A model generated the notes under the pieces. It did not search any database, was not told the origin of the DNA, and saw only the letters and a program-made list of their open reading frames with translations. DNA of 42,873 bases from a virus (Duplodnaviria; Caudoviricetes), in IMG/VR virus record IMGVR_UViG_3300022309_000011, positions 1 to 42,873 of that record. One strand, given 5' to 3'. Positions within the stretch are counted from its first letter, which is position 1. Each line of letters opens with the position of its first letter. The translations under genes and the position numbers were made by a program. Shown here in pieces: positions 8,056 through 18,749 of this stretch.

Positions 8056-8835
8056 ATGCACTTTTACGAATGGAATATTGGCGAATATGCCAAAAAAACC
8101 AAACACCTCACGAACGAAGAGGATATAGCTTATCGCCGTGCGCTTGATATGTATTACGATACAGAAAAGCCATTGGAAACCCAAAATATCCCAGCGCTAT
8201 CCCGTAGGTTAATGGTTTCAGAAGATGCATTAAAAAATGTGATAAATGAGTTCTTTCCAGATGGTATAAATCAACATGCCGAGGAAAAAATAGCAGCTTA
8301 TTATGCTTTTATTGATAAGCAAAAAGCCAATGGCAGCAAGGGAGGTAGACCAAAAAGAACCCAAGCCTTTCCCAAGCCTAACCCAAAAAAACCCAAGCCA
8401 AAGCCATTACTAACTAATAACTACTTACCACTAACTACTGAACAATCAAAGTCAAAATCTTTGTCTGCGCAAAATGCGCAAACCTCAAAAAAAGGAACTC
8501 GATTAACATCTGATTGGGTATTGTCAAAATCATTGGGGGATTGGGCTTTAGCTGAAAAACCGCATCTTACCGCCGATAACATCCGGCGCATGGCTGAGTC
8601 ATTTCGGGATTACTGGATAGCGAAACCTGGCAAGGATGGCGTTAAACTCGACTGGGAGGCAACTTGGCGTAATTGGGTGCGCAAGGATACAACCGATTGG
8701 CAAAAATCGACGCAAGGCGGCTCAAATCAAACCGTATCGCCAGTTAAGCACATCTGCGAGATAGAAAATTGTGGAAAAGAGGCAAATACGAAGACGTCAA
8801 AAGGCCATAGATGCGTGGCACATATTGCAAAATAG
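8056..8835 (+). CDS. Replication initiation protein, YdaU/DUF1376 family
   Basis: MHFYEWNIGEY...HLTNEEDIAYRRALDMYYDTEKP, NGSKGGRP, C-terminal DWEATWRNWVR. Confidence 0.85.
   Translation: MHFYEWNIGEYAKKTKHLTNEEDIAYRRALDMYYDTEKPLETQNIPALSRRLMVSEDALKNVINEFFPDGINQHAEEKIAAYYAFIDKQKANGSKGGRPKRTQAFPKPNPKKPKPKPLLTNNYLPLTTEQSKSKSLSAQNAQTSKKGTRLTSDWVLSKSLGDWALAEKPHLTADNIRRMAESFRDYWIAKPGKDGVKLDWEATWRNWVRKDTTDWQKSTQGGSNQTVSPVKHICEIENCGKEANTKTSKGHRCVAHIAK
8358..8440 (+). repeat. Iteron-like repeats inside the replication gene (putative origin)
   Basis: CCCAAGCC x3 plus AACCCAA, then (C)TAACTA repeats; lambdoid origins lie inside the initiator gene. Confidence 0.5.
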
Positions 8836-8866
8836 AAATTAAATCATTAACTTTTAAGGGGATTTT

Positions 8867-11122
8867 ATGAAATACGAAGAGTTTATCGAAAGTAAAAAGA
8901 TTCAACCTGTCATCGCGGGCTTTGATGTTGACGAAAATAGCTTGAATGACAATCTTTTTGACTTCCAGCGAGTAATTGTTAAATGGGCTTTGAAGCGTGG
9001 CCGTGCTGCTATATTTGCAGATACCGGACTTGGCAAAACATTAATGCAAACTTCATGGGCTGACGAGGTTGTTAATTACACCGGCGGCGATGTGCTGATA
9101 TTTGCGCCTCTATGTGTGGCAAATCAGACAGTGAACGAAGGCAAAAAATTTGACATTGAAATAAATTATTGCCGTGATCAAGACGGGATAAAGACGGGCG
9201 TCAATATCACCAATTACGAAATGATGGATAATTTTGATCTTTCGTTATTCGCGGGCGTGGTTTTGGATGAGTCAAGCATCATTAAAAACCGCGATGGTAA
9301 AACGCGCAATGCAATAATCGAAGGTTGCAAAATAGTACCTTATCGACTTTCATGCACCGCGACCCCATCACCAAACGACTTTATGGAATTGGGCAATCAG
9401 GTTGAATTCCTCGGCATCATGACCATGACTGAAATGCTCGCCATGTATTTCGTAAATGACGCGGGGGATACTGGAACATGGATTTTAAAAGGTCATGGTA
9501 AGGAGAAGTTTTGGGAATGGATGGCAACATGGGCAGTCTGTATTCGTAGCCCGGAGGATATTGGTTTTGACGGTTCAAAATATATTTTGCCGCCATTGAA
9601 CATGATCGGTCATGTAGTAGAAAGTGCCACTACTTTTGGATTGTTTGCTGATATTGCGCAAGGGCTATTAGAGCGCAATCAAGCAAGGCGCGATTCAATT
9701 GATGATCGAGTTGCAAAATGCGCAGAAGTTGTTAATACGAGTTCAGAACAATTCTTTATATGGTGCCATTTGAATGACGAAGCCGCCATGATTGAAAAAA
9801 TGATACCCGGTGCCGTTGATGTATCCGGCAGTGATTCAATCGAACACAAAGAAGAATCTATCAGAGGATTTATTGACGGATCGATTCGCGTTTTAGTTTC
9901 AAAACCAAAAATACTTGGGGCTGGTATGAATTTTCAACATTGTCATAACACTGCATTTGTCGGTCTATCAGATAGCTGGGAACAATACTATCAGGCTATC
10001 CGTAGGTTCTATCGCTTCGGTCAAACCAAAGAAGTCAACGTGCATATTATCAGCGCAGAATCAGAAGGCGCAGTGGTTGAAAATATTAGGCGCAAAGAAC
10101 TGCAAAATGAAGAGATGGGTTCGCAGATGGTTAAACACATGAGCAATGCTATGAAAAAGGAAATATTTGGAATGAGTGAAGAAAAATCAGAATATGTACG
10201 CGATGTTGTCAAGACTGCGGATTATGAATTGCATCTTGCTGATTGCGTAGAATTGGCAAGTGAGATTGAAACTGGCACGATTGATTACACAATTTTTAGC
10301 CCGCCGTTTGAATCAATGTATGTATTCAGTAATCACATTCGAGATATGGGAAATTCAACGAAAGAACAGTTCTATCAGCACTTCCGTTTTCTGGTTGATG
10401 AAATGTTGCGTATTACTCGCCCCGGAAGATTGCTTTCGTTTCACTGTATGAATTTGCCAACTTCAAAAGTAAATGATGGATATATCGGAATCCGTGATTT
10501 CCGTGGCGATCTTATTCGCATGTTTCAACAATCAGGATGGATTTACCATAGCGAGGTATGTATTTGGAAAGATCCTGTAGTTGCTATGCAACGCACAAAG
10601 GCACTTGGATTGCTCCATAAGACCATTCGCAAAGATAGCTCAATGAGCCGCCAAGGGATTGCTGATTATTTGGTTACCATGCGCAAGCCAGGACAAAATG
10701 ATAAGGCTGTGAGGCATTATCGTGACGCAGAAGAATGTGCGGATGTATGCAAGGCAGAAGGATTGGACTATGAAACTGAGTGTAAAAACATTCTTGAAGT
10801 CGGATTATGGCAACAATACGCAAGCCCTGTATGGATGGATATTAATCAATCGCGTACACTCAACTTTAAATCAGGCCGTGACGATGATGACCAAAAACAT
10901 ATATGCCCATTGCAACTTGATGTGATTGAACGTGCTATGCATCTTTGGACTGCGCCAGGTGATCTTGTATTCAGTCCGTTTACTGGAGTTGGCAGCGAAG
11001 GTTATGTAGCTGTAGGAATGGGTCGCAGATTCATCGGCAGCGAATTGAAACAAAGTTACTTTGATCTTGCCAAAAAGAATATGCAAGATGCGAAAAAAGG
11101 AACAATGGACATGTTCGCATGA
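8867..11122 (+). CDS. SNF2-like helicase fused to an N4/N6 DNA methyltransferase
   Basis: ADTGLGKT, LDESS, TATP and QAIRRFYRFGQ helicase motifs; C-terminal FSPPF and FSPFTGVGSEG methyltransferase motifs. Confidence 0.9.
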   Translation: MKYEEFIESKKIQPVIAGFDVDENSLNDNLFDFQRVIVKWALKRGRAAIFADTGLGKTLMQTSWADEVVNYTGGDVLIFAPLCVANQTVNEGKKFDIEINYCRDQDGIKTGVNITNYEMMDNFDLSLFAGVVLDESSIIKNRDGKTRNAIIEGCKIVPYRLSCTATPSPNDFMELGNQVEFLGIMTMTEMLAMYFVNDAGDTGTWILKGHGKEKFWEWMATWAVCIRSPEDIGFDGSKYILPPLNMIGHVVESATTFGLFADIAQGLLERNQARRDSIDDRVAKCAEVVNTSSEQFFIWCHLNDEAAMIEKMIPGAVDVSGSDSIEHKEESIRGFIDGSIRVLVSKPKILGAGMNFQHCHNTAFVGLSDSWEQYYQAIRRFYRFGQTKEVNVHIISAESEGAVVENIRRKELQNEEMGSQMVKHMSNAMKKEIFGMSEEKSEYVRDVVKTADYELHLADCVELASEIETGTIDYTIFSPPFESMYVFSNHIRDMGNSTKEQFYQHFRFLVDEMLRITRPGRLLSFHCMNLPTSKVNDGYIGIRDFRGDLIRMFQQSGWIYHSEVCIWKDPVVAMQRTKALGLLHKTIRKDSSMSRQGIADYLVTMRKPGQNDKAVRHYRDAEECADVCKAEGLDYETECKNILEVGLWQQYASPVWMDINQSRTLNFKSGRDDDDQKHICPLQLDVIERAMHLWTAPGDLVFSPFTGVGSEGYVAVGMGRRFIGSELKQSYFDLAKKNMQDAKKGTMDMFA

Positions 11123-11537: not shown

Positions 11538-11853
11538 GTCAGCAATATTACTGAACGAACCAATTTTCAGACCTGATTTTTATATATGGGCCTGCAACAA
11601 CCATGAGATTTATAGTCACTTTGAGCAAGACGCAAAAAGATTCGCGGCAAATGGATTTAAAAAAATTGGCGCAAAAATGATTATCGAAAATATCCGATAC
11701 AGAACGAAGTTGCGTGAAATTGGAAACGGGGAATGGAAAATAAACAATAATTTCTCGGCAGATTTGGCGAGGCTATTTTTATTGCTTAATCCTGAATTCC
11801 CTGGATTATTTGAAATCCGCGTAGTTCATTCAAATATCTTGCGTGGAATATGA
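11512..11853 (+). CDS. Hypothetical phage protein
   Basis: GGGGG RBS; IIENIRY...WKINNNF..DLARLF......LFEIR. Confidence 0.7.
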   Translation: MPSTQEQIKSAILLNEPIFRPDFYIWACNNHEIYSHFEQDAKRFAANGFKKIGAKMIIENIRYRTKLREIGNGEWKINNNFSADLARLFLLLNPEFPGLFEIRVVHSNILRGI

Positions 11854-12416
11854 AAAATAAAAAATGCAAAGTACCGTATTGCAGGGCTATATTTGAGCCA
11901 AGAACTCCATTGCAAAGCGTTTGCAGTCCGAAATGTGCAGGAATATGGGCCGGAATTCTCAGGGAGAAAAAGGAACTTTTACAGAAGAAAGAAGCCCGTA
12001 AGGAATATCGGGAAGCAAAGTTAAAAATGAAGCGCAGGGGGGAATGGAAATCTGACGCGCAGGATATAATAAATTTATGGATAAAATTGAGAGATTATTT
12101 TGAGCCATGTATTTCATGCGGGAAACATAGGAATGCTTATGATGCAGGACATTATTTAGCCCGAAGCATAAGGCCAGAACTTGCATTTCATGAAGATAAT
12201 ATTCACAAGCAATGCGTGTACTGTAACAACTACAACAAAGGCGTAGGAAGCGCAGGATACAGGCCAAATCTGATAAAAAAAATCGGAATTGAAAAAGTCG
12301 AAGAACTTGAAAAACCACATCCCCCGGCACATCATACAATTGAGTTTTATCAAGGCATAATTTCAACATATAAACAAAAAATAAAAGAGCGAAAAAAAGA
12401 ATTAAATTTGTGTTGA
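11850..12416 (+). CDS. ninG: NinG/Rap family recombination nuclease
   Basis: CK..C...Q.VCSPKCA, CISCG, DAGHY, LAFHEDNIHKQCVYCN. Confidence 0.9.
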   Translation: MKNKKCKVPYCRAIFEPRTPLQSVCSPKCAGIWAGILREKKELLQKKEARKEYREAKLKMKRRGEWKSDAQDIINLWIKLRDYFEPCISCGKHRNAYDAGHYLARSIRPELAFHEDNIHKQCVYCNNYNKGVGSAGYRPNLIKKIGIEKVEELEKPHPPAHHTIEFYQGIISTYKQKIKERKKELNLC

Positions 12417-12441
12417 CTGACGGCCATAAACGGAATAGTAT
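12413..12441 (+). promoter_or_regulatory. Sigma70 promoter upstream of the cassette array (Pc-like)
   Basis: TTGACT-17 bp-TAGTAT. Confidence 0.65.
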
Positions 12442-12665
12442 TTGCCTTGCTGTTGTAGTAATTAGACATAGGGGAGTTACATCCTTCAAGCTGAATTAGG
12501 GCCAGTCAGAGGTGGAAAGCCTTGGATGCATGAGCCACATCATAGAACGGCCTTTATCACTTGTTTATTTTGCCCTTTGGTGTATTCACAAAATAAAATT
12601 TAGTGCAATCCCTTGTAACTCGGAAACTATATCAGGGAAAATTTAGGCAACGGCAAAATATTAAA

Positions 12666-12690
12666 ACAAGATGCGATTTTCGCATCTTGT
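12666..12690. other. Perfect 11-bp stem hairpin in the leader of cassette 1
   Basis: ACAAGATGCGA-TTT-TCGCATCTTGT. Confidence 0.7.
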
Positions 12691-12708
12691 ATATTCTCAG
12701 GGGGATAT

Positions 12709-13023
12709 ATGTGTAAATTTGAAATTCTTGCGAAGCTGCACGGGATTGATGTAAACAAAAACGAGCATAATTATTTAAACCCAAAAGCTGAGATTGCGCG
12801 TACATTTTGGGATGCTCAACAAGTAGAAATTGACAGGCTTAAACAAGAGCTATGTGATGTAACTTTTGCGGCTAAGGCTTTTAAATATGTGTTGGATAAC
12901 CAGGATAATAAAACAGCGAAATCAAAACCAATTTTAAAAAATATTCAACTTCCTAATCCATTTCGTTATTTAGTGATTGCATTGGCGGTGATTGGTTTTT
13001 TAATTTATCTGAATATTGCCTAA
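12709..13023 (+). CDS. Cassette 1: hypothetical protein with C-terminal TM helix
   Basis: GGGGG RBS; stop TAA lies inside R'' of attC1. Confidence 0.75.
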   Translation: MCKFEILAKLHGIDVNKNEHNYLNPKAEIARTFWDAQQVEIDRLKQELCDVTFAAKAFKYVLDNQDNKTAKSKPILKNIQLPNPFRYLVIALAVIGFLIYLNIA

Positions 13024-13080
13024 CAAACCAAATCAGGGGATCGAACGCAGTGAGATTCCCGCTTGAATGTTTGGTTGGGC
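13018..13080 (+). repeat. attC site 1
   Basis: GCCTAAC...GGGATC...GATTCCC...GTTGGGC, 63 bp. Confidence 0.85.
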
Positions 13081-13096
13081 AACGAAAGGATAAAAG

Positions 13097-13438
13097 ATGA
13101 ACAGAAATATGATTGAGCAAGTAAAAGATGCTAAAACACCGGAAGAAATGAGGGCTGAAATTTTCAGGTTACAGCGCTACGACCCATTGGTGAGAGCAGT
13201 GATAGATTCATCACAATACCGTGGCGCGAGCGCCGAAGATACTTATACCGTTCTCGCATACAATGCGATGAAGCAACTAGCAGAAATAAAACAACACGTT
13301 TTTGATGATGCAATTATGCGCCCACCACAACCTGTGTTTGTGATGCCCAACGTTCAAATTGAGGGGCAGGCCGCTTCTGGCCTGTCCCGCTCGAATGCAG
13401 GGTTGTGCGTCAATACTACGGAGCGGGGGAATGAATGA
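13097..13438 (+). CDS. Cassette 2: hypothetical protein; reading frame runs through attC2
   Basis: AAGGA RBS; the C-terminal tail PNVQIEGQAASGLSRSNAGL is translated attC2. Confidence 0.75.
   Translation: MNRNMIEQVKDAKTPEEMRAEIFRLQRYDPLVRAVIDSSQYRGASAEDTYTVLAYNAMKQLAEIKQHVFDDAIMRPPQPVFVMPNVQIEGQAASGLSRSNAGLCVNTTERGNE
13345..13408 (+). repeat. attC site 2
   Basis: GCCCAAC...GGGCAGGCC-GCTTCT-GGCCTGTCC...GTTGTGC, 64 bp. Confidence 0.88.
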
Positions 13439-14357
13439 GTTGGCTTTATTCGCAGGCGCTGGTGGAGGAATACTTGCTGGACACTCACTCGGATGGCGCA
13501 CAGTTTGCGCAGTCGAGTGGGAGCCATACGCCGCAAGCGTACTTGCACAGAGACAAAATGACAAAATTCTCGCGCCTTTCCCGATTTGGGATGACGTATG
13601 CACCTTTGACGGAAAGCCATGGCGTGGAGTTGTTGACGTGGTTTCTGGTGGCTTCCCGTGTACGGACATATCAGCCGCAGGGCGAGGCGCAGGAATTGAA
13701 GGCGAGCATAGCGGGTTGTGGCGAGAAATGGCACGAATTATCGGTGAAGTATTGCCCCGTTTTGTGTTCGTGGAAAACTCACCGCTCCTTGTGGGAAGAG
13801 GTGCTGCAATGGTCATCGGTGATCTTGCCGCGATGGGGTATGACGCGCAATGGTGTTGTCTTTCAGCATCCGACATGGGAGCGCCCCATCAGCGCGATAG
13901 GTTCTGGCTTGCAGCCAGACAACGAGAGCTTTTTCCATACGCCGACATGCGGTGGAATGGACGGCGGGAGCAACAGCAGGAAGGCGCTCAAGAAACGGCA
14001 GGAAGTATTTGCCACGCCGCAGGCGCGGGACTACCGCAGCGGGCAGGCAAGCCGATGGGACGATCCGGCGCGCAGTCGGAACTTGAACGATCAGATTGCA
14101 AAGTACCCGACCCCACAAGCATCGGACAACAGGGACAGGGGATGCCGTTCAACGCCAGCGATAGCACGGCGTATAGCGGCAGGAAAGCAAGTTATGCTAT
14201 CCATGATGGTGAGCGAAGAGAATGGCCGCCTGAACCCGGAATTTGTCGAGTGGTTGATGGGATGGCCGCAAGGATGGACAGACTTAAAGCCCTTGGAAAT
14301 GGGCAGGTTCCGCGAGTGGCAAGCACAGCATGGCGGATTTTGACGCACAACGCATGA
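13431..14357 (+). CDS. Cassette 3: C5 cytosine DNA methyltransferase, alpha polypeptide
   Basis: Motifs I LFAGAGG, IV GGFPC, VI ENSP, VIII HQRDR and X LKALGNGQVP present; motif IX absent. Confidence 0.9.
   Translation: MNELALFAGAGGGILAGHSLGWRTVCAVEWEPYAASVLAQRQNDKILAPFPIWDDVCTFDGKPWRGVVDVVSGGFPCTDISAAGRGAGIEGEHSGLWREMARIIGEVLPRFVFVENSPLLVGRGAAMVIGDLAAMGYDAQWCCLSASDMGAPHQRDRFWLAARQRELFPYADMRWNGRREQQQEGAQETAGSICHAAGAGLPQRAGKPMGRSGAQSELERSDCKVPDPTSIGQQGQGMPFNASDSTAYSGRKASYAIHDGERREWPPEPGICRVVDGMAARMDRLKALGNGQVPRVASTAWRILTHNA
13435..14343 (+). CDS. Cassette 3: overlapping alternative-frame methyltransferase beta polypeptide
   Basis: 302 stop-free codons in the +1 frame; repeated TP..D motifs and motif-IX-like RLNPEFVEWLMGWP..WT. 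True start uncertain. Confidence 0.75.
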   Translation: MSWLYSQALVEEYLLDTHSDGAQFAQSSGSHTPQAYLHRDKMTKFSRLSRFGMTYAPLTESHGVELLTWFLVASRVRTYQPQGEAQELKASIAGCGEKWHELSVKYCPVLCSWKTHRSLWEEVLQWSSVILPRWGMTRNGVVFQHPTWERPISAIGSGLQPDNESFFHTPTCGGMDGGSNSRKALKKRQEVFATPQARDYRSGQASRWDDPARSRNLNDQIAKYPTPQASDNRDRGCRSTPAIARRIAAGKQVMLSMMVSEENGRLNPEFVEWLMGWPQGWTDLKPLEMGRFREWQAQHGGF

Positions 14358-14399
14358 ATTTTGGGGCGCGCAGCGTCCCGCAACAATGACGGGTTATGC
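14345..14399 (+). repeat. attC site 3
   Basis: GCACAAC...GGGGCGC-GCA-GCGTCCC...GTTATGC, 55 bp. Confidence 0.82.
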
Positions 14400-14422
14400 C
14401 CCGTCTTTAATCGGAGAACTGA

Positions 14423-14632
14423 ATGGACGCTAAAACAAGACGCAAACATCTTCGTGACTTTCAGGATGCGGCGCGAGAGATTGAATTGGGCGGGGTCTGC
14501 ATTGGCATTCTTGAAGCGATGCGAGACCCAGTTGGGCAGCGCTGTATAAAAGCGCTCAACGCCAGCGCACAGCGGCAGCTTACGAAACTCGATAAAGCGG
14601 CGGAAAAACTTGGGGCACCATACGGGGCATAA
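14423..14632 (+). CDS. Cassette 4: hypothetical protein
   Basis: GGAG RBS; stop TAA inside R'' of attC4. Confidence 0.75.
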   Translation: MDAKTRRKHLRDFQDAAREIELGGVCIGILEAMRDPVGQRCIKALNASAQRQLTKLDKAAEKLGAPYGA

Positions 14633-14694
14633 CGTGTAGTTGAGGGGCTGGACGAGGCGTTTATCGGCCAGTCCGCTCGAACGGAAAGTTATAC
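14627..14694 (+). repeat. attC site 4
   Basis: GCATAAC...TTGAGGGGCTGG...CCAGTCCGCTCGAA...GTTATAC, 68 bp. Confidence 0.88.
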
Positions 14695-14898
14695 ATGAAA
14701 ACTCAATATATAAAATTTTGCCAGCAACATAATGACTCTGTATTGGGTTCACAAGCTATAACGTGGATAACAACATCATTAGTGCGTGTCACTCGAAACA
14801 GATTACAAAAGGCTCATTTTGAGTGGGTAGGTAACGCATCAATGCAATTTGATTTAGATGAGGTGCGTAAATTGTACCCTTTGGCACTGTATGTATAA
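14695..14898 (+). CDS. Cassette 5: hypothetical protein
   Basis: ATG directly after R' of attC4; stop TAA inside R'' of attC5. Confidence 0.7.
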   Translation: MKTQYIKFCQQHNDSVLGSQAITWITTSLVRVTRNRLQKAHFEWVGNASMQFDLDEVRKLYPLALYV

Positions 14899-14953
14899 CG
14901 CAGAAATCAGGGGCTGAGCGTTAGCGAAGTCCCGCTGGATTGTAGGGTTGTGC
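14893..14953 (+). repeat. attC site 5
   Basis: GTATAAC...AATCAGGGGCT...AGTCCCGCTGGATT...GTTGTGC, 61 bp. Confidence 0.88.
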
Positions 14954-14978
14954 GTCATTTTTAACGAAGAGGTGAAAA

Positions 14979-15131
14979 ATGAAGTTTATTTTTATAGTAA
15001 TCGGTGCTGCGTTTTTAATGTTCCTCGGAGCCTTTGCGCATGAAGGGGACATCCAATCACAGTGCAGAGAACATGGCAAGGCCGGGCATTCTGCATGGCG
15101 TGGCGAACTTATCTGCGCGCCACTGCAATGA
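14979..15131 (+). CDS. Cassette 6: 50-aa protein with N-terminal hydrophobic/signal segment
   Basis: Read manually: MKFIFIVIGAAFLMFLGAFAHEGDIQSQCREHGKAGHSAWRGELICAPLQ*; GAGGTG RBS. Confidence 0.75.
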   Translation: MKFIFIVIGAAFLMFLGAFAHEGDIQSQCREHGKAGHSAWRGELICAPLQ

Positions 15132-15132
15132 C

Positions 15133-15193
15133 GCACAACAAGTATTAGGCGGCCTTATAATATATAAATTATGCCGTCTAAATCACGTTTTAT
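15133..15193 (+). repeat. attC site 6 (terminal, degenerate R')
   Basis: GCACAAC-5 nt-TTAGGCGG...CCGTCTAA-5 nt-GTTTTAT. Confidence 0.65.
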
Positions 15194-15439
15194 ATTATAA
15201 ATCGTTGATTTTTGACGAATATGTATTTATAACACAGCCTAAAATAATGCGGTTCAAAGTTAATGTAATACATTAAGCGTGAAAGATTAAAGCGTTGTCA
15301 GAATATCTTTTTATTTGTCTTGAAAAGGACAAAAAGGACAAATTTATTTATGATAATAAAATCAAATACATATATTGTATTTTTGGAATAGAGATTTGCA
15401 ATTTATCTGCAAGACTGTCCTTTCTGCTATAGTTTAGCG

Positions 15440-16045
15440 ATGAATACACCGAAAAAGAAAGTTGGCCGAAAGAGCAAAATCCCCGAAGGCGAGAGAGAAA
15501 AAATCCGCGCCCGACTTATGAGGGGCGATACGATGGCTGATATTGCAAGGGATTATGGTGTTGATCCCAAAGTGATTCAGCGCATGAAGCACTTGGCAAA
15601 GCAGGAGGGGGGGGAAACCAGGCTTCCTGTTGGAATGATTAAGCAGGCGGCTGAAAAGTCACTTGAAAACGATCTTCGTGATCCTGTCGTAAGAAATCTG
15701 CTTGAAATTGCAGGCCAATCGGATCGGGATTTATTTTATAACCACAAAAACGATTTGCTTGAAATTACAATGCAGTTAAATCTTTCATGTAAATTCAGCG
15801 CCCAGAACGCGCACAAACTGGCGGCTATGGCGCATAACCATTTAAGCAAGCTTGAAACTACCGCTTTGCTCGATAGCGAAAGCAAGGAAACTTTAAACAA
15901 GGCAATGGTATTGCAAGACGCATCAAACGAATCCGCAAAACAGCCGATGAAGCTGTTTGAAATCGCCACGAAACAGCCGCCCCCTCCCCCGGAAGATAAG
16001 CCATTACGGATTATTGGAGGTTTGCCGGAAGTGCCGTATGAATGA
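15440..16045 (+). CDS. terS: Terminase small subunit (N-terminal HTH)
   Basis: GRKSKI, MADIARDYGVDPKVI HTH; C-terminal IIGGLP; directly upstream of terL. Confidence 0.75.
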   Translation: MNTPKKKVGRKSKIPEGEREKIRARLMRGDTMADIARDYGVDPKVIQRMKHLAKQEGGETRLPVGMIKQAAEKSLENDLRDPVVRNLLEIAGQSDRDLFYNHKNDLLEITMQLNLSCKFSAQNAHKLAAMAHNHLSKLETTALLDSESKETLNKAMVLQDASNESAKQPMKLFEIATKQPPPPPEDKPLRIIGGLPEVPYE

Positions 16046-17321
16046 CCGGGAAACATACCCGGACGCAGTTATTCTGCCGGTGCTTCATCCTGGACAGGTT
16101 GAAGCATATATGATGCGCAAACGGTTTAAGGCAATTCGCTGCGGGAGGAGATGGGGCAAGACTGACTTATTGAAAACAATTGCCGGAGATGGGGCAACAA
16201 AAGGGCAATCAATCGGCTGGTTTACGCCGGACTACAAGATTCAATCAGAAGCATATAACGAAATCAGGGAAATTTTGCATCCTGTAATTCGGTCGGCCTC
16301 AAAAATTGATGGGGTCATTAGGCTGATTACTGGGGGCCGCATTGATTTTTGGACATTAAACAACCCAAGGGCCGGGCGATCAAGGAAGTATCATAAAGTC
16401 TTGCTGGATGAGGTCGCATTCGCTGGCCCAGACATGCGTGGTATATGGGAGAAATCCATTAAGCCTTCATTGCTGGATTATGGTGGTAGCGCAATGGCGG
16501 CTTCAACTCCAAACGGGGACGATCCTGACAATTTCTTTTGGCAGTTATGCAATGATCCAACATTAGGATTCTCTGAATACCATGCGCCAACGCATACAAA
16601 TCCCTATTTGCCGGAAGATGAGCTTGCAAAGCTGGTAAACGAAAATGCCCCTCTTGTTTACTCGCAAGAGTATCTTGCAAACTTTGTAGACTGGAAAGGC
16701 GCTGCGTTCTTTGCGCTTGATTCATTGCTTGAAAATGGATTTCCAGTAGACCCAACAATGAACCCAGATGCCGTTTACGCTATAGTCGATACGGCGGTAA
16801 AGGATGGACTTGAGCATGATGGAACGGCAGTAACCTATTTTGCTGTATCAAAATTTCATGGTTTCCGGCTGGTTGTGCTGGATTGGGATATTGTCCAGAT
16901 AAAAGGGGATTTACTTGAAAACTGGATGCCGAGCGTATACCGAAGATGTGAAGAGCTTGCAACGCAGTACAAAGCCCGCCATGGTTCATTGGGGGCATTC
17001 ATTGAGGATAAGCAGACCGGAACTATATTGATTCAGCAGGCAGAGCGCAGGGGGCTACCAGGCAGGGCTATAGATGGCAAACTTACAGCGGCGGGGAAAG
17101 ACGCCCGTGCGATTTCCGTATCAGGATATGTGCATCAAGGATTGATAAGGATAAGCAGACACGCATTTGATAAGGTGATAAACTTCAAAGGCGTAACGAG
17201 AAATCATTTTATTGCACAGGTTTGCGGTTTCAGGATCGGGGTCAAAGATCAGGCTGATGACTTGTTTGATACCTTCACTTATGGCATAAGTATTGGCCTT
17301 GGCGATTCTTCAGGATATTAA
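16038..17321 (+). CDS. terL: Terminase large subunit
   Basis: Walker A CGRRWGKT, Walker B LLDEVAF, STPNG, nuclease VDTA and DDLFD. Confidence 0.95.
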   Translation: MNDRETYPDAVILPVLHPGQVEAYMMRKRFKAIRCGRRWGKTDLLKTIAGDGATKGQSIGWFTPDYKIQSEAYNEIREILHPVIRSASKIDGVIRLITGGRIDFWTLNNPRAGRSRKYHKVLLDEVAFAGPDMRGIWEKSIKPSLLDYGGSAMAASTPNGDDPDNFFWQLCNDPTLGFSEYHAPTHTNPYLPEDELAKLVNENAPLVYSQEYLANFVDWKGAAFFALDSLLENGFPVDPTMNPDAVYAIVDTAVKDGLEHDGTAVTYFAVSKFHGFRLVVLDWDIVQIKGDLLENWMPSVYRRCEELATQYKARHGSLGAFIEDKQTGTILIQQAERRGLPGRAIDGKLTAAGKDARAISVSGYVHQGLIRISRHAFDKVINFKGVTRNHFIAQVCGFRIGVKDQADDLFDTFTYGISIGLGDSSGY

Positions 17322-17333
17322 TAGGAAAAAATC

Positions 17334-18749
17334 ATGGCAAATTTAACAGTAAGCGGGTCGTCTGTCGGGAATTCCCTGTCACATCTTTTAATGTCAGACG
17401 ATATTGAGCCAGGAAGCGAACCGAGTTACCAGCTTTGCAAAACCATTTATACGTTTCACCCAATGGGTGCAAAAATGGTTGAGGCTCCCGTGACTGTTGC
17501 GATGAGCCAGCGGCGAGAGGTTTCCATCCCAAGCAGCCCGGAAGATGTAGTCAAGGAGGCATACTGGACAGAATGGGACAAGCTTAAGTGTGATGAGCAT
17601 ATCGCCAATGCAATGCACCTAAAGCGGATATACGGTATCTCTGCGGTCGTTCTTGGCGCTGAAGATGTATCAACAGACAGGCCAATACCTAATGACCAGA
17701 TTGCAAACCTGAAAATATTTTTCAATATTCTTGATCCGCTTAATACGGCAGGAAGTCTGGTTTTAAATCAAGACCCGAATGCCCCTGATTTTCAAAAAGC
17801 CGGTACGGTGGTTGCAGCGGGGAAGGCGTATCACAAGTCACGTTGTTGCGTTGTGTTGAACGAAAAACCTATTTATATTTCGTATTCAAATTCTGCATTT
17901 GGATTTGTTGGCCGGTCAGTGTTTCAAAGAGCATTGTTTCCGCTGAAGAGTTACGTTCAAAGCATGATTACAAATGATCTGGTAATCACTAAAGCAGGGG
18001 TATTGGTTGCAAAGACCAAACAGCCTGGATCAATCGTTGATAACCTGATGAGTTCAATGCTCGGCCAAAAGCGAGATTTGGTAAAAGACGCTAAACAGGG
18101 CAATGTGATTTCAATTGGTATCGAAGAAAGCGTGGAAACGCTCAATCTAAACAATACAGATACAGCAATAGGAACGGCACGAACAAACATCATCGAGGAT
18201 ATTGCCTCAAGTGCCAATATGCCGCCCAAGCTGTTGATGGCTGATGGATACGCAAACTCGCTGGCGAATGGTACGGAAGATTTTAAGGCAACCATGCAAT
18301 ACATCGATGCCTTACGAAAAGACATGCAGCCACTTTATGACTTTTTTGACAATATCGTACAGCGCAGGGCATGGAGCCATGAGTTTTATTTGACCATTCA
18401 AAAGCAATTTCCTGAATATGAGAAAATCGGATATACCCAGGCGTTTTATACATGGGTTAATGATTTTTCTGCAATTTGGCCCAGCCTGCAAGAAGAACCG
18501 GAATCAGACAAAGCGGATGTTGAAAAGGTAAAACTGGATGCAATTACCTCAATCCTTGAAAAGTTACTTCCTCATCTTGATCCTGAAAATAAAGCGGTAG
18601 TGATAGAGTGGGCCGCAGATAATATCAACGAAAATAAGATTATGTTTGCGAATCCTCTTAATCTGGATATTGAAGCATTGAAGGCGTATACACCGCCAGA
18701 GCCGATACAAGGCGACCAGTCAGAAAATAAATCCGAAGCTGAAAAATAA
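17334..18749 (+). CDS. Portal protein (DUF1073-like)
   Basis: 471 aa after terL; GRSVFQRAL and IASSANMPPKLL resemble Bcep781-like portals. Confidence 0.85.
   Translation: MANLTVSGSSVGNSLSHLLMSDDIEPGSEPSYQLCKTIYTFHPMGAKMVEAPVTVAMSQRREVSIPSSPEDVVKEAYWTEWDKLKCDEHIANAMHLKRIYGISAVVLGAEDVSTDRPIPNDQIANLKIFFNILDPLNTAGSLVLNQDPNAPDFQKAGTVVAAGKAYHKSRCCVVLNEKPIYISYSNSAFGFVGRSVFQRALFPLKSYVQSMITNDLVITKAGVLVAKTKQPGSIVDNLMSSMLGQKRDLVKDAKQGNVISIGIEESVETLNLNNTDTAIGTARTNIIEDIASSANMPPKLLMADGYANSLANGTEDFKATMQYIDALRKDMQPLYDFFDNIVQRRAWSHEFYLTIQKQFPEYEKIGYTQAFYTWVNDFSAIWPSLQEEPESDKADVEKVKLDAITSILEKLLPHLDPENKAVVIEWAADNINENKIMFANPLNLDIEALKAYTPPEPIQGDQSENKSEAEK

Follow-up and report, generated by a model that had tools for sequence, protein, structure and literature searches.

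Cury 2016 (PMC4889954) define a CALIN (cluster of attC sites lacking integron-integrases) as at least two attC recombination sites on one strand, less than 4 kb apart. According to the text of Qi 2023 (PMC9892861), 17 CALINs are present in 10,705 phage genomes and the integrase IntI1 recombined five of six tested phage sites. In integron theory the choice of the attC strand aligns the genes with the cassette promoter, and Nivina 2016 (PMC5027507) describe promoter-facing cassettes as unseen in mobile and chromosomal integrons. The array described here is located in a virus record of the Caudoviricetes (IMGVR_UViG_3300022309_000011), a linear sequence of 42,873 bases that is estimated to be ~82% complete and is referred to as the window. 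It lies between ninG and the likely small terminase gene (Table 1). Judged from its sequence, it is very probably a phage-borne, integrase-less integron array with five inverted cassettes, which are likely excised and inserted by the integrase (IntI) of the host acting in trans. A preliminary description had divided the array into six units, and this numbering is kept; units 2 to 6 are complete cassettes and unit 1 is not.

Like the phage CALINs of Qi 2023, the array is an attC cluster without an integrase gene, in a tailed phage and with methyltransferase cargo. The phage MW202573 from Fig. 2D of that paper matches the attC of unit 3 (91% over 56 nt). The detector used here calls MW202573 inverted (4 sites, top strand minus, annotated genes plus); the phage tested by Qi 2023, TJE1, has 3 sites in the usual orientation. 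The text of Qi 2023 is silent on the orientation of genes relative to attC, although strands may be shown in its figures or annotation file, and does not report a fixed locus with changing cargo among related phages, as is found here. attC anatomy, sequence style and own-end complementarity are like those of sedentary chromosomal integrons of the G022 family, whose attI pattern (AAC, 4 nt, AGT) is similar to the terminal site of the array. This family, represented by a record titled Dechloromonas, is presumably the Rhodocyclaceae. In sedentary integrons, however, the attC top strand carries the genes, which point away from intI, whereas those of the window are on the bottom strand and read toward an attI-like site without intI. 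Two further systems share single traits. IntI places single cassettes at chromosomal attG sites with the consensus GWT (Loot et al., bioRxiv 2022.09.11.507474), which resembles a chromosomal copy at G|AT described below, but the attG work used laboratory cassettes in Escherichia coli and the terminal site of the window is more attI-like than a bare GWT. Inverted-integrase integrons (Cury 2016) also have an unusual relative orientation inside the integron. There, intI is oriented as the attC, whereas in the related element G012 it is opposite to the attC top strand and the cassette genes are turned; the window contains no intI and does not belong to this class. Phage attC clusters and end complementarity are known already. 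What sets the present case apart is that the layout is inverted, that the cargo changes at a fixed locus and that a lone chromosomal insertion fixes the edges of a cassette. Full-text literature searches, with most subscription papers outside their coverage, found no paper on inverted cassettes in phages.

The anatomy of the coding (plus) strand is that of a recombinogenic attC bottom strand. On the minus strand all five hairpins read R'', 5 nt, L'' with an extra base, loop, L', 5 or 6 nt, R'. All five sites have both pairs of inverted boxes (R''/R' and L''/L'); AAC/GTT is conserved and the spacers measure 5 and 5–6 nt. On the plus strand the extra bases are in the 3' arm (5/5). The same asymmetry is seen in the published aadA7 bottom strand, with 6 nt after AAC, 5 nt before GTT and an extra G in the 3' arm (PMC9892861 Table S3). 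According to Nivina 2016, the extra bases of bottom strands are on the arm opposite AAC, and bottom strands are purine-rich and more stable. In the window, the plus-strand GC skew is positive at each site (+0.05 to +0.33) and the plus-strand fold is the more stable one in four of the five linear cores and in all five circular junctions. The attC RNA model used here was built without base pairs and scores sequence only; its matches include its own training sites.

All array genes are on the plus strand of the open reading frame list; thus, the genes are inverted relative to their hairpins, so that the predicted cut falls at AA|C at the gene ends. A cassette begins at the C of a gene-end AAC, includes the hairpin and the gene behind it, and is closed by the AA with which this gene ends. 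The canonical layout, with the gene on the attC top strand, the attC after the gene and expression from Pc at attI, is not found in the window: the genes are on the bottom strand in all three scored intervals, and so are the starts in four of five (one is uncalled). With five attC sites on one strand within 1.94 kb the array is a CALIN. In silico circularization at G/TT had been proposed as a check. When run at AA|C, each of the five hairpins is paired best with the end of its own gene.

The preliminary description had recognized that the start of each unit is the reverse complement of its own end, and all six pairs are indeed present. Counted from TT/AA, perfect complementarity extends over 8, 7, 11, 11, 8 and 12 nt in units 1 to 6, compared with 2, 3, 2, 4 and 2 nt within the hairpins in their linear form. 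The R''/R' boxes of the linear attC sites are mismatched, as had been noted (1, 1, 1, 1 and 2 mismatches per 7 nt). The sum of 57 is attained by one of the 720 start-to-end permutations, which is the true pairing (mean 24.2). Units 3 and 6 also complement each other over 10 nt; thus, the signal in part reflects a signature common to the family. Nine GTT...AAC pairs of 9–10 nt within 2.5 kb occur elsewhere in the window, so that a single 8-nt pair is weak on its own. The first pair starts with T|TT instead of G|TT and no hairpin adjoins it. As a control, 20 regions next to bacterial intI genes were scored; an own-end complementarity of at least 7 nt is found there in 23 of 36 cassettes (mean 7.6), compared with 13 of 56 linear sites. 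Own-end complementarity is therefore ordinary textbook behavior of integron cassettes and not peculiar to the phage. The complementary ends correspond to the two R boxes of a single cassette. They are a cheap way to locate cassette edges but give no direction, since their symmetry leaves no way to read from them on which side the crossover lies.

The edges of cassette 3 are fixed by a chromosomal insertion. The array was searched against 301 genomes of one betaproteobacterial family and gave matches in 23. In G128, a single contig of 5.17 Mb, a lone 848-bp relative of unit 3 is located within a PiT phosphate-transporter gene (G128:C1:1680790-1681638; L373 12791-13639). It is 80.7% identical to cassette 3 over 436 nt and 81.6% over the 98 nt ending at 14352. 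Removal of the insert restores a transporter frame of 337 aa. The flanks abut in the empty gene of 18 of 40 relatives, and all nine that were fetched read QKT|IGIIW. On the transporter strand one join is G|TT and the second is G|AT, the latter in accordance with the GWT consensus, and the insertion edges are without homology. On the methyltransferase strand the hairpin comes first in the insert, whose last bases are the AA of the AAC at the gene end; no second hairpin follows. The edges of the insert match positions 13351-14350 of the window and not the 13403-14393 of the preliminary description. Most likely, the insert represents a natural attG-type insertion of a phage-type inverted cassette. 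G128 has four IntI matches above the cut-off, one of them with a stop, all more than 400 kb from the insert. A second PHO4-family gene is located ~2 kb beyond the insert.

The viral contig L247 agrees with these edges. It corresponds to window positions 13344-13423 (98.75% over 80 nt), unbroken across 13402. Its methyltransferase is 47% and 38% identical in two stretches and the gene end is common up to 14352; the upstream gene and the downstream hairpin differ from those of the window. Whether homology ends at the boundaries first proposed had been named as a check; the similarity to L247 passes 13402 up to 13344 and stops at 14352. In both L247 and G128 the hairpin belongs to the downstream gene, and a crossover at G/TT on the plus strand is not supported. 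Contigs from two runs of one study are ~93% like positions 13580-14352; contigs at 13382-13384 extend too little to the left of 13402 to count as bridging. Gaps in coverage over units 2 and 4 are given no weight here, and run X1 may be where the window comes from. Movement as a discrete unit with G|TT edges on the minus strand was found for cassette 3 only and not for units 2, 4, 5 and 6. The earlier view of the joints as attC-type recombination sites between units that move as cassettes is supported.

The cargo of the locus changes among related phages. Five close relatives were selected by their terminase (77–90%), four of which are informative, L083 being too short. L081, L082 and L103 (terminase 84–90% identical) carry different cassettes before the small terminase gene, and each of these arrays ends in a terminal half-site. 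L113 has no attC between ninG and terminase. A further 21 loci, which are more distant, gave no match, and a ninG search gave two distant loci, neither with an array. A pattern of the cassette 3 start gave 11 loci in viral contigs, all of them unrelated. L113 (G003) is binned in an assembly titled Nitrospira, in which an intI is present on another contig. In L082 an HNH-like gene, recognized by eye, is located between the terminase genes (2200-2740), and the frame of the large terminase seems to be shifted.

The inverted orientation is not restricted to the window. A survey with one arm pattern on both strands of IMG/VR, covering one attC family only, yielded 19 loci. Of these, 17 were scored after two near-duplicates had been dropped, and three related phages were added. 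A start preceded by a ribosome site follows on the bottom strand only at 36 of 59 phage sites, on the top strand only at none, on both at 1 and on neither at 22. The bacterial controls have it on the top strand only at 19 of 69 sites, on the bottom strand only at 8, on both at 3 and on neither at 39. By the longest open reading frame, 9 of 26 phage intervals are inverted, 2 have the same orientation and 15 are unclear; the bacterial values are 1, 24 and 11 of 36, respectively. The attC detector found no site in 337,812 shuffled bases. Some loci of the survey have features of their own. L287 contains four near-identical attC sites (326-1589) without a start called on either strand and may be an array of the usual orientation. 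One phage contig, L285, carries two inverted arrays on opposite strands (8483-9741 and 15664-17508). Long attC sites with an apparent ribosome site and an ATG in the loop are found in L282 (8839-8961), L082 (487-579), L286 (8044-8166) and L288 (6556-6677); with the ATG inside the loop, the 3' arm of the hairpin would encode the N-terminus of the protein.

The array ends in a site that is labeled attI-like here, an assignment made with moderate confidence from its sequence. The attI profile was derived from 18 attI sites chosen by eye among 35 bacterial intI loci. Among the 1479 AAC sites of the window, the mirror arm ranks first with a score of 11.6, inside the leave-one-out training range, and the plus arm (15137) ranks 13th with a score of -0.5. 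In other arrays, nine of the 11 terminal sites are among the top 3.5%. The terminal site is at the same position as the site before intI in G012, and its 4-nt spacing is also found before true intI genes in the bacterial controls. The site is a palindrome with two facing attI-like arms, the outer of which fits the bacterial attI profile better than the arm on the array side.

No tyrosine recombinase is present among 61 scanned proteins of the window, and the six frames of the 42.9 kb gave no PF00589 match at E ≤ 1. A complete integron, with an intI that has the IntI-specific domain, is present in the related element G012. Its true intI (TIGR02249, 477 bits; best PDB match 2A3V, E 8e-87) starts ~80 nt after the last array gene. 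It shares the strand of the genes and runs against the attC top strand; except for the genes, this is how integrons are usually laid out. The attC core of unit 3 is identical in L247 and in L278, the latter belonging to the array that adjoins this IntI. The inverted cassettes of the G012 integron (L278 5357-8793) carry a methyltransferase, a small gene and a member of the PAPS-reductase family. The element additionally contains a CII-like gene, a primase, an excisionase and three more tyrosine recombinases. No virion gene was found among 14 scanned proteins; thus, the element is possibly a satellite.

The proposed mechanism builds on the observed anatomy, the gene strand, the edges of cassette 3 and the changing cargo at one locus. 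Single-stranded plus DNA would fold into the hairpin, IntI would cut at AA|C and replication would resolve the junction. The attI-like site next to the terminase genes would be the entry point of new cassettes, at the far end of a transcript whose predicted start is at the ninG stop. Cassettes with the usual layout would be antisense there and remain silent, so that inverted ones would be selected. The GC skew of the window (+0.125 over 8–21 kb) would fit the plus strand as the lagging template, although coding bias is equally able to explain it; according to Loot 2017 a lagging template favors attC folding. Arrays with all genes facing attI reverse the logic of the integron, as expression would come from the far end and the newest cassette would be expressed last.

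Several points weigh against host IntI acting on such an array. The contig contains no integrase and no intI with the IntI-specific domain; as it is ~82% complete, the phage may still encode such an enzyme. Tyrosine recombinases are absent from 17 of 20 virus records (present in 3), and an IntI-length match beside the array is found in only one of the 20. Contigs of four runs yielded no excised circle and no rearranged copy of the array. The proof of the edges comes from one cassette family, and G128 is one assembly. A hairpin-linkage test over similar hairpins is weak, with 19 pairs for, 9 against and 5 ties (33 pairs). Two phage intervals, L287 and L289, are called as usual orientation. The score of the plus arm of the terminal site is lower than the training range, inside which only two of the 11 terminal sites in other arrays fall. 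Finally, the predicted promoter is one of 8 matches in the window against 6.1 expected in shuffles and is not above chance on its own.

The missing intI would also fit a fossil block on which IntI no longer acts, taken up a single time from a chromosomal integron of the host or shuffled between similar hairpins by RecE/RecT-type recombination of the phage. The phage has RecE- and RecT-like genes, hairpin cores are common to many cassettes and L113 has no array at the locus; Qi 2023 suggest homologous or illegitimate recombination as a route into phages. A captured block, however, should not be inverted, as bacterial arrays of the same attC type have the usual orientation by 24 to 1. Furthermore, own-end complementarity is intact in all five cassettes (7–12 nt), three relatives have wholly different cassettes with terminal half-sites, and the G128 insertion occurred without homology at its edges. 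A fossil block is therefore unlikely.

Insertion by an Xer-like tyrosine recombinase that lacks the IntI insertion, encoded in the missing part of the phage or by another element, would agree with the incomplete contig and with terminal sites that have a 6-bp, dif-like central region. The same 4-nt spacing before true intI genes in bacterial controls, the hairpin identical to that of unit 3 in an array adjoining a true IntI and the lone insertion at GWT in a genome with several IntI make this source of the recombinase very unlikely.

The preliminary description had proposed six cassettes of the usual orientation, each with the gene followed by its hairpin, inserted at G/TT on the plus strand. 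The complementary ends fit this layout equally well, and top-strand recombination occurs at low frequency (PMC5027507). The extra bases, however, are then on the wrong arm at all five sites, no array-type attC follows the last unit and the leader of the first unit is shared with L113. In L247 and G128 the hairpin accompanies the gene downstream of it, which already contradicts this layout for cassette 3. Overall, there is hardly any probability left for it. Lastly, transcription terminators, or repeats that arose by chance between ordinary phage genes, are practically excluded as an explanation of the hairpins, despite modest folds (linear attC z-scores against shuffles of -2.58, -2.31, 0.20, -2.31 and -1.30). 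No intrinsic terminator, with a short GC stem and a T run behind it on the coding strand, was found, and none of three terminator-like matches coincides with a hairpin or is on the plus strand. Two of the genes run into a hairpin or through one, the permutation test singles out the true pairing (1/720) and a relative of one unit is precisely inserted in a gene.

The inverted array acted on by host IntI thus accounts best for the locus. A wider interpretation is tentative. Phages of integron-rich hosts might run their own mirror-image cassette pool on host IntI, spilling into chromosomes at attG. In such a pool the attC might serve as a 5' module with a ribosome site, sometimes with a start codon, which gives rise to new cassettes when joined before ordinary phage genes. 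Methyltransferase homologues are mostly ordinary phage genes, as 73 of 74 scored (80 fetched) have an end complementarity of less than 8 nt. A further homologue without a hairpin is present in G342. The hairpin-bearing methyltransferases fall in two parts of a quick tree, which is a lead only, since L278 is badly placed and the automatic label missed L352 and L353. The occurrence of the same gene families with and without attC makes cassette genesis testable by near-identical pairs, and if the mirror-image pool exists, phage accessory regions are the place to watch it. If IntI fills such arrays, phages obtain their accessory genes and anti-restriction genes through an enzyme of the host, and host genes are open to disruption by cassettes from phages, as seen in G128.

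Unit 1 does not fit the description of the array as six independent circles. No attC precedes its gene, and the homology to the array-less L113 is continuous across 12643, where the unit was thought to begin; similarity continuing over a boundary had itself been named as grounds for rejection. In the block 12622-12653, 26 of 32 columns match the L113 leader. The alignment of the leaders has a local score of 53, compared with a shuffled maximum of 34 (0 of 1000 shuffles as high). Unit 1 is either a resident gene with a chance 8-nt match or an old cassette that lost its hairpin. Four homologues of its gene were found, three of which are shorter with different ends. Both hexamer regions of the predicted promoter are partly conserved in L113, and this promoter presumably transcribes the cassette genes toward the insertion site. 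The ~230-nt leader that follows the promoter-like site (12413-12660 including the latter) has blocks conserved in L113, an RNA fold with a z-score of -2.08 and no Rfam match. It could be an antitermination leader.

Table 1. Positions of the array, its cassettes and its flanks in the window.
Feature	Position	Strand	Remarks
ninG/rap gene, left flank of array	11850-12416	+	PF05766, E 5e-50; phrog_171; same position in related phage L113
Predicted sigma-70-type promoter	12413-12441	+	TTGACT-17-TAGTAT; overlaps ninG stop
Non-coding leader	12442-12660	+	Common with array-less L113; contains the first unit start of the preliminary description (12643)
Unit 1 gene	12709-13023	+	104 aa, no family; not a complete cassette, no attC upstream
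attC of unit 2	13018-13080	- (top strand = minus)	Predicted crossover 13023|13024
Cassette 2	13024-13350	-	327 bp; gene 13097-13438 (+)
attC of unit 3	13345-13408	-	Crossover 13350|13351; edge fixed by G128 insertion
Cassette 3	13351-14350	-	1000 bp; C5 cytosine methyltransferase 13431-14357 (+); second gene 13435-14343 (+), another frame
attC of unit 4	14345-14399	-	Predicted crossover 14350|14351; linear fold no better than shuffles (z 0.20)
Cassette 4	14351-14632	-	282 bp; gene 14423-14632 (+), 69 aa, no family
attC of unit 5	14627-14694	-	Predicted crossover 14632|14633
Cassette 5	14633-14898	-	266 bp; gene 14695-14898 (+), 67 aa, start at R box; no phage match
attC of unit 6	14893-14953	-	Predicted crossover 14898|14899
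Cassette 6	14899-15138	-	240 bp; gene 14979-15131 (+), 50 aa
attI-like terminal site	15133-15194	-	AAC, 4 nt, ATT and mirror arm, no extra-helical base; predicted crossover 15138|15139
Likely small terminase gene (15440-16045) and large terminase gene, right flank	15440-17321	+	terL phrog_2; small subunit assigned from position alone
End pairs, units 1-3	12643-12650/13016-13023; 13074/13344-13351; 13402/14340-14351
End pairs, units 4-6	14393/14622-14633; 14688/14891-14899; 14947/15127-15139

The only named cargo of the array is the C5 methyltransferase of cassette 3 (PF00145, E 8e-28; phrog_363 and phrog_1008) and the second gene that overlaps it. Relatives of this cassette with the same edges are present in L247 and G128. 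The two long overlapping genes are in different frames and both match PHROG methyltransferase families. The pair is reminiscent of two-polypeptide C5 methyltransferases. The methyltransferase likely protects the phage DNA from restriction, by analogy with the anti-restriction role that Qi 2023 propose for such cargo. Its stop falls within the next hairpin. The gene of unit 2 crosses the attC that follows; its last 29 residues and its stop come from cassette 3 and overlap both methyltransferase starts. The C-termini encoded by units 2 and 3 thus depend on the neighboring cassette.

No family or homologue of the unit 2 gene was found in family scans, and its only match in viral contigs covers ten residues. 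Units 1, 2 and 5 gave no tblastn match in 50,697 phage records, and Atlas searches with units 2 and 4 gave only scores below 0.9. The unit 4 protein has 13 homologues besides itself. Its C-terminus (14610-14632) is PYGA in 7 of 10 homologues read, and L348 (2501-2710) retains these residues without an attC; thus, the R box of unit 4 overlaps conserved coding sequence. Cassette 6 is likely the latest arrival, as suggested by its position next to the attI-like site.

Family scans of the window found ParB, RecE-like and RecT-like proteins, a helicase-methylase fusion, NinG, terminase, portal, sheath and baseplate proteins. This set of genes identifies the record as a tailed phage. An Rfam search of the window gave no match, and a CTGT-N8-ACAG box, which is presumably the LexA motif, is found nowhere in it. 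A methyltransferase-family gene on the minus strand (2291-2992, phrog_757) is split into two pieces. An SNF2-type helicase is fused to an N6/N4 DNA methylase at 8867-11122. Upstream of the small terminase gene, a repeated GGACAAA-like motif is present in the window (15326-15345) and in L081, L082, L103 and L113, with or without an array.

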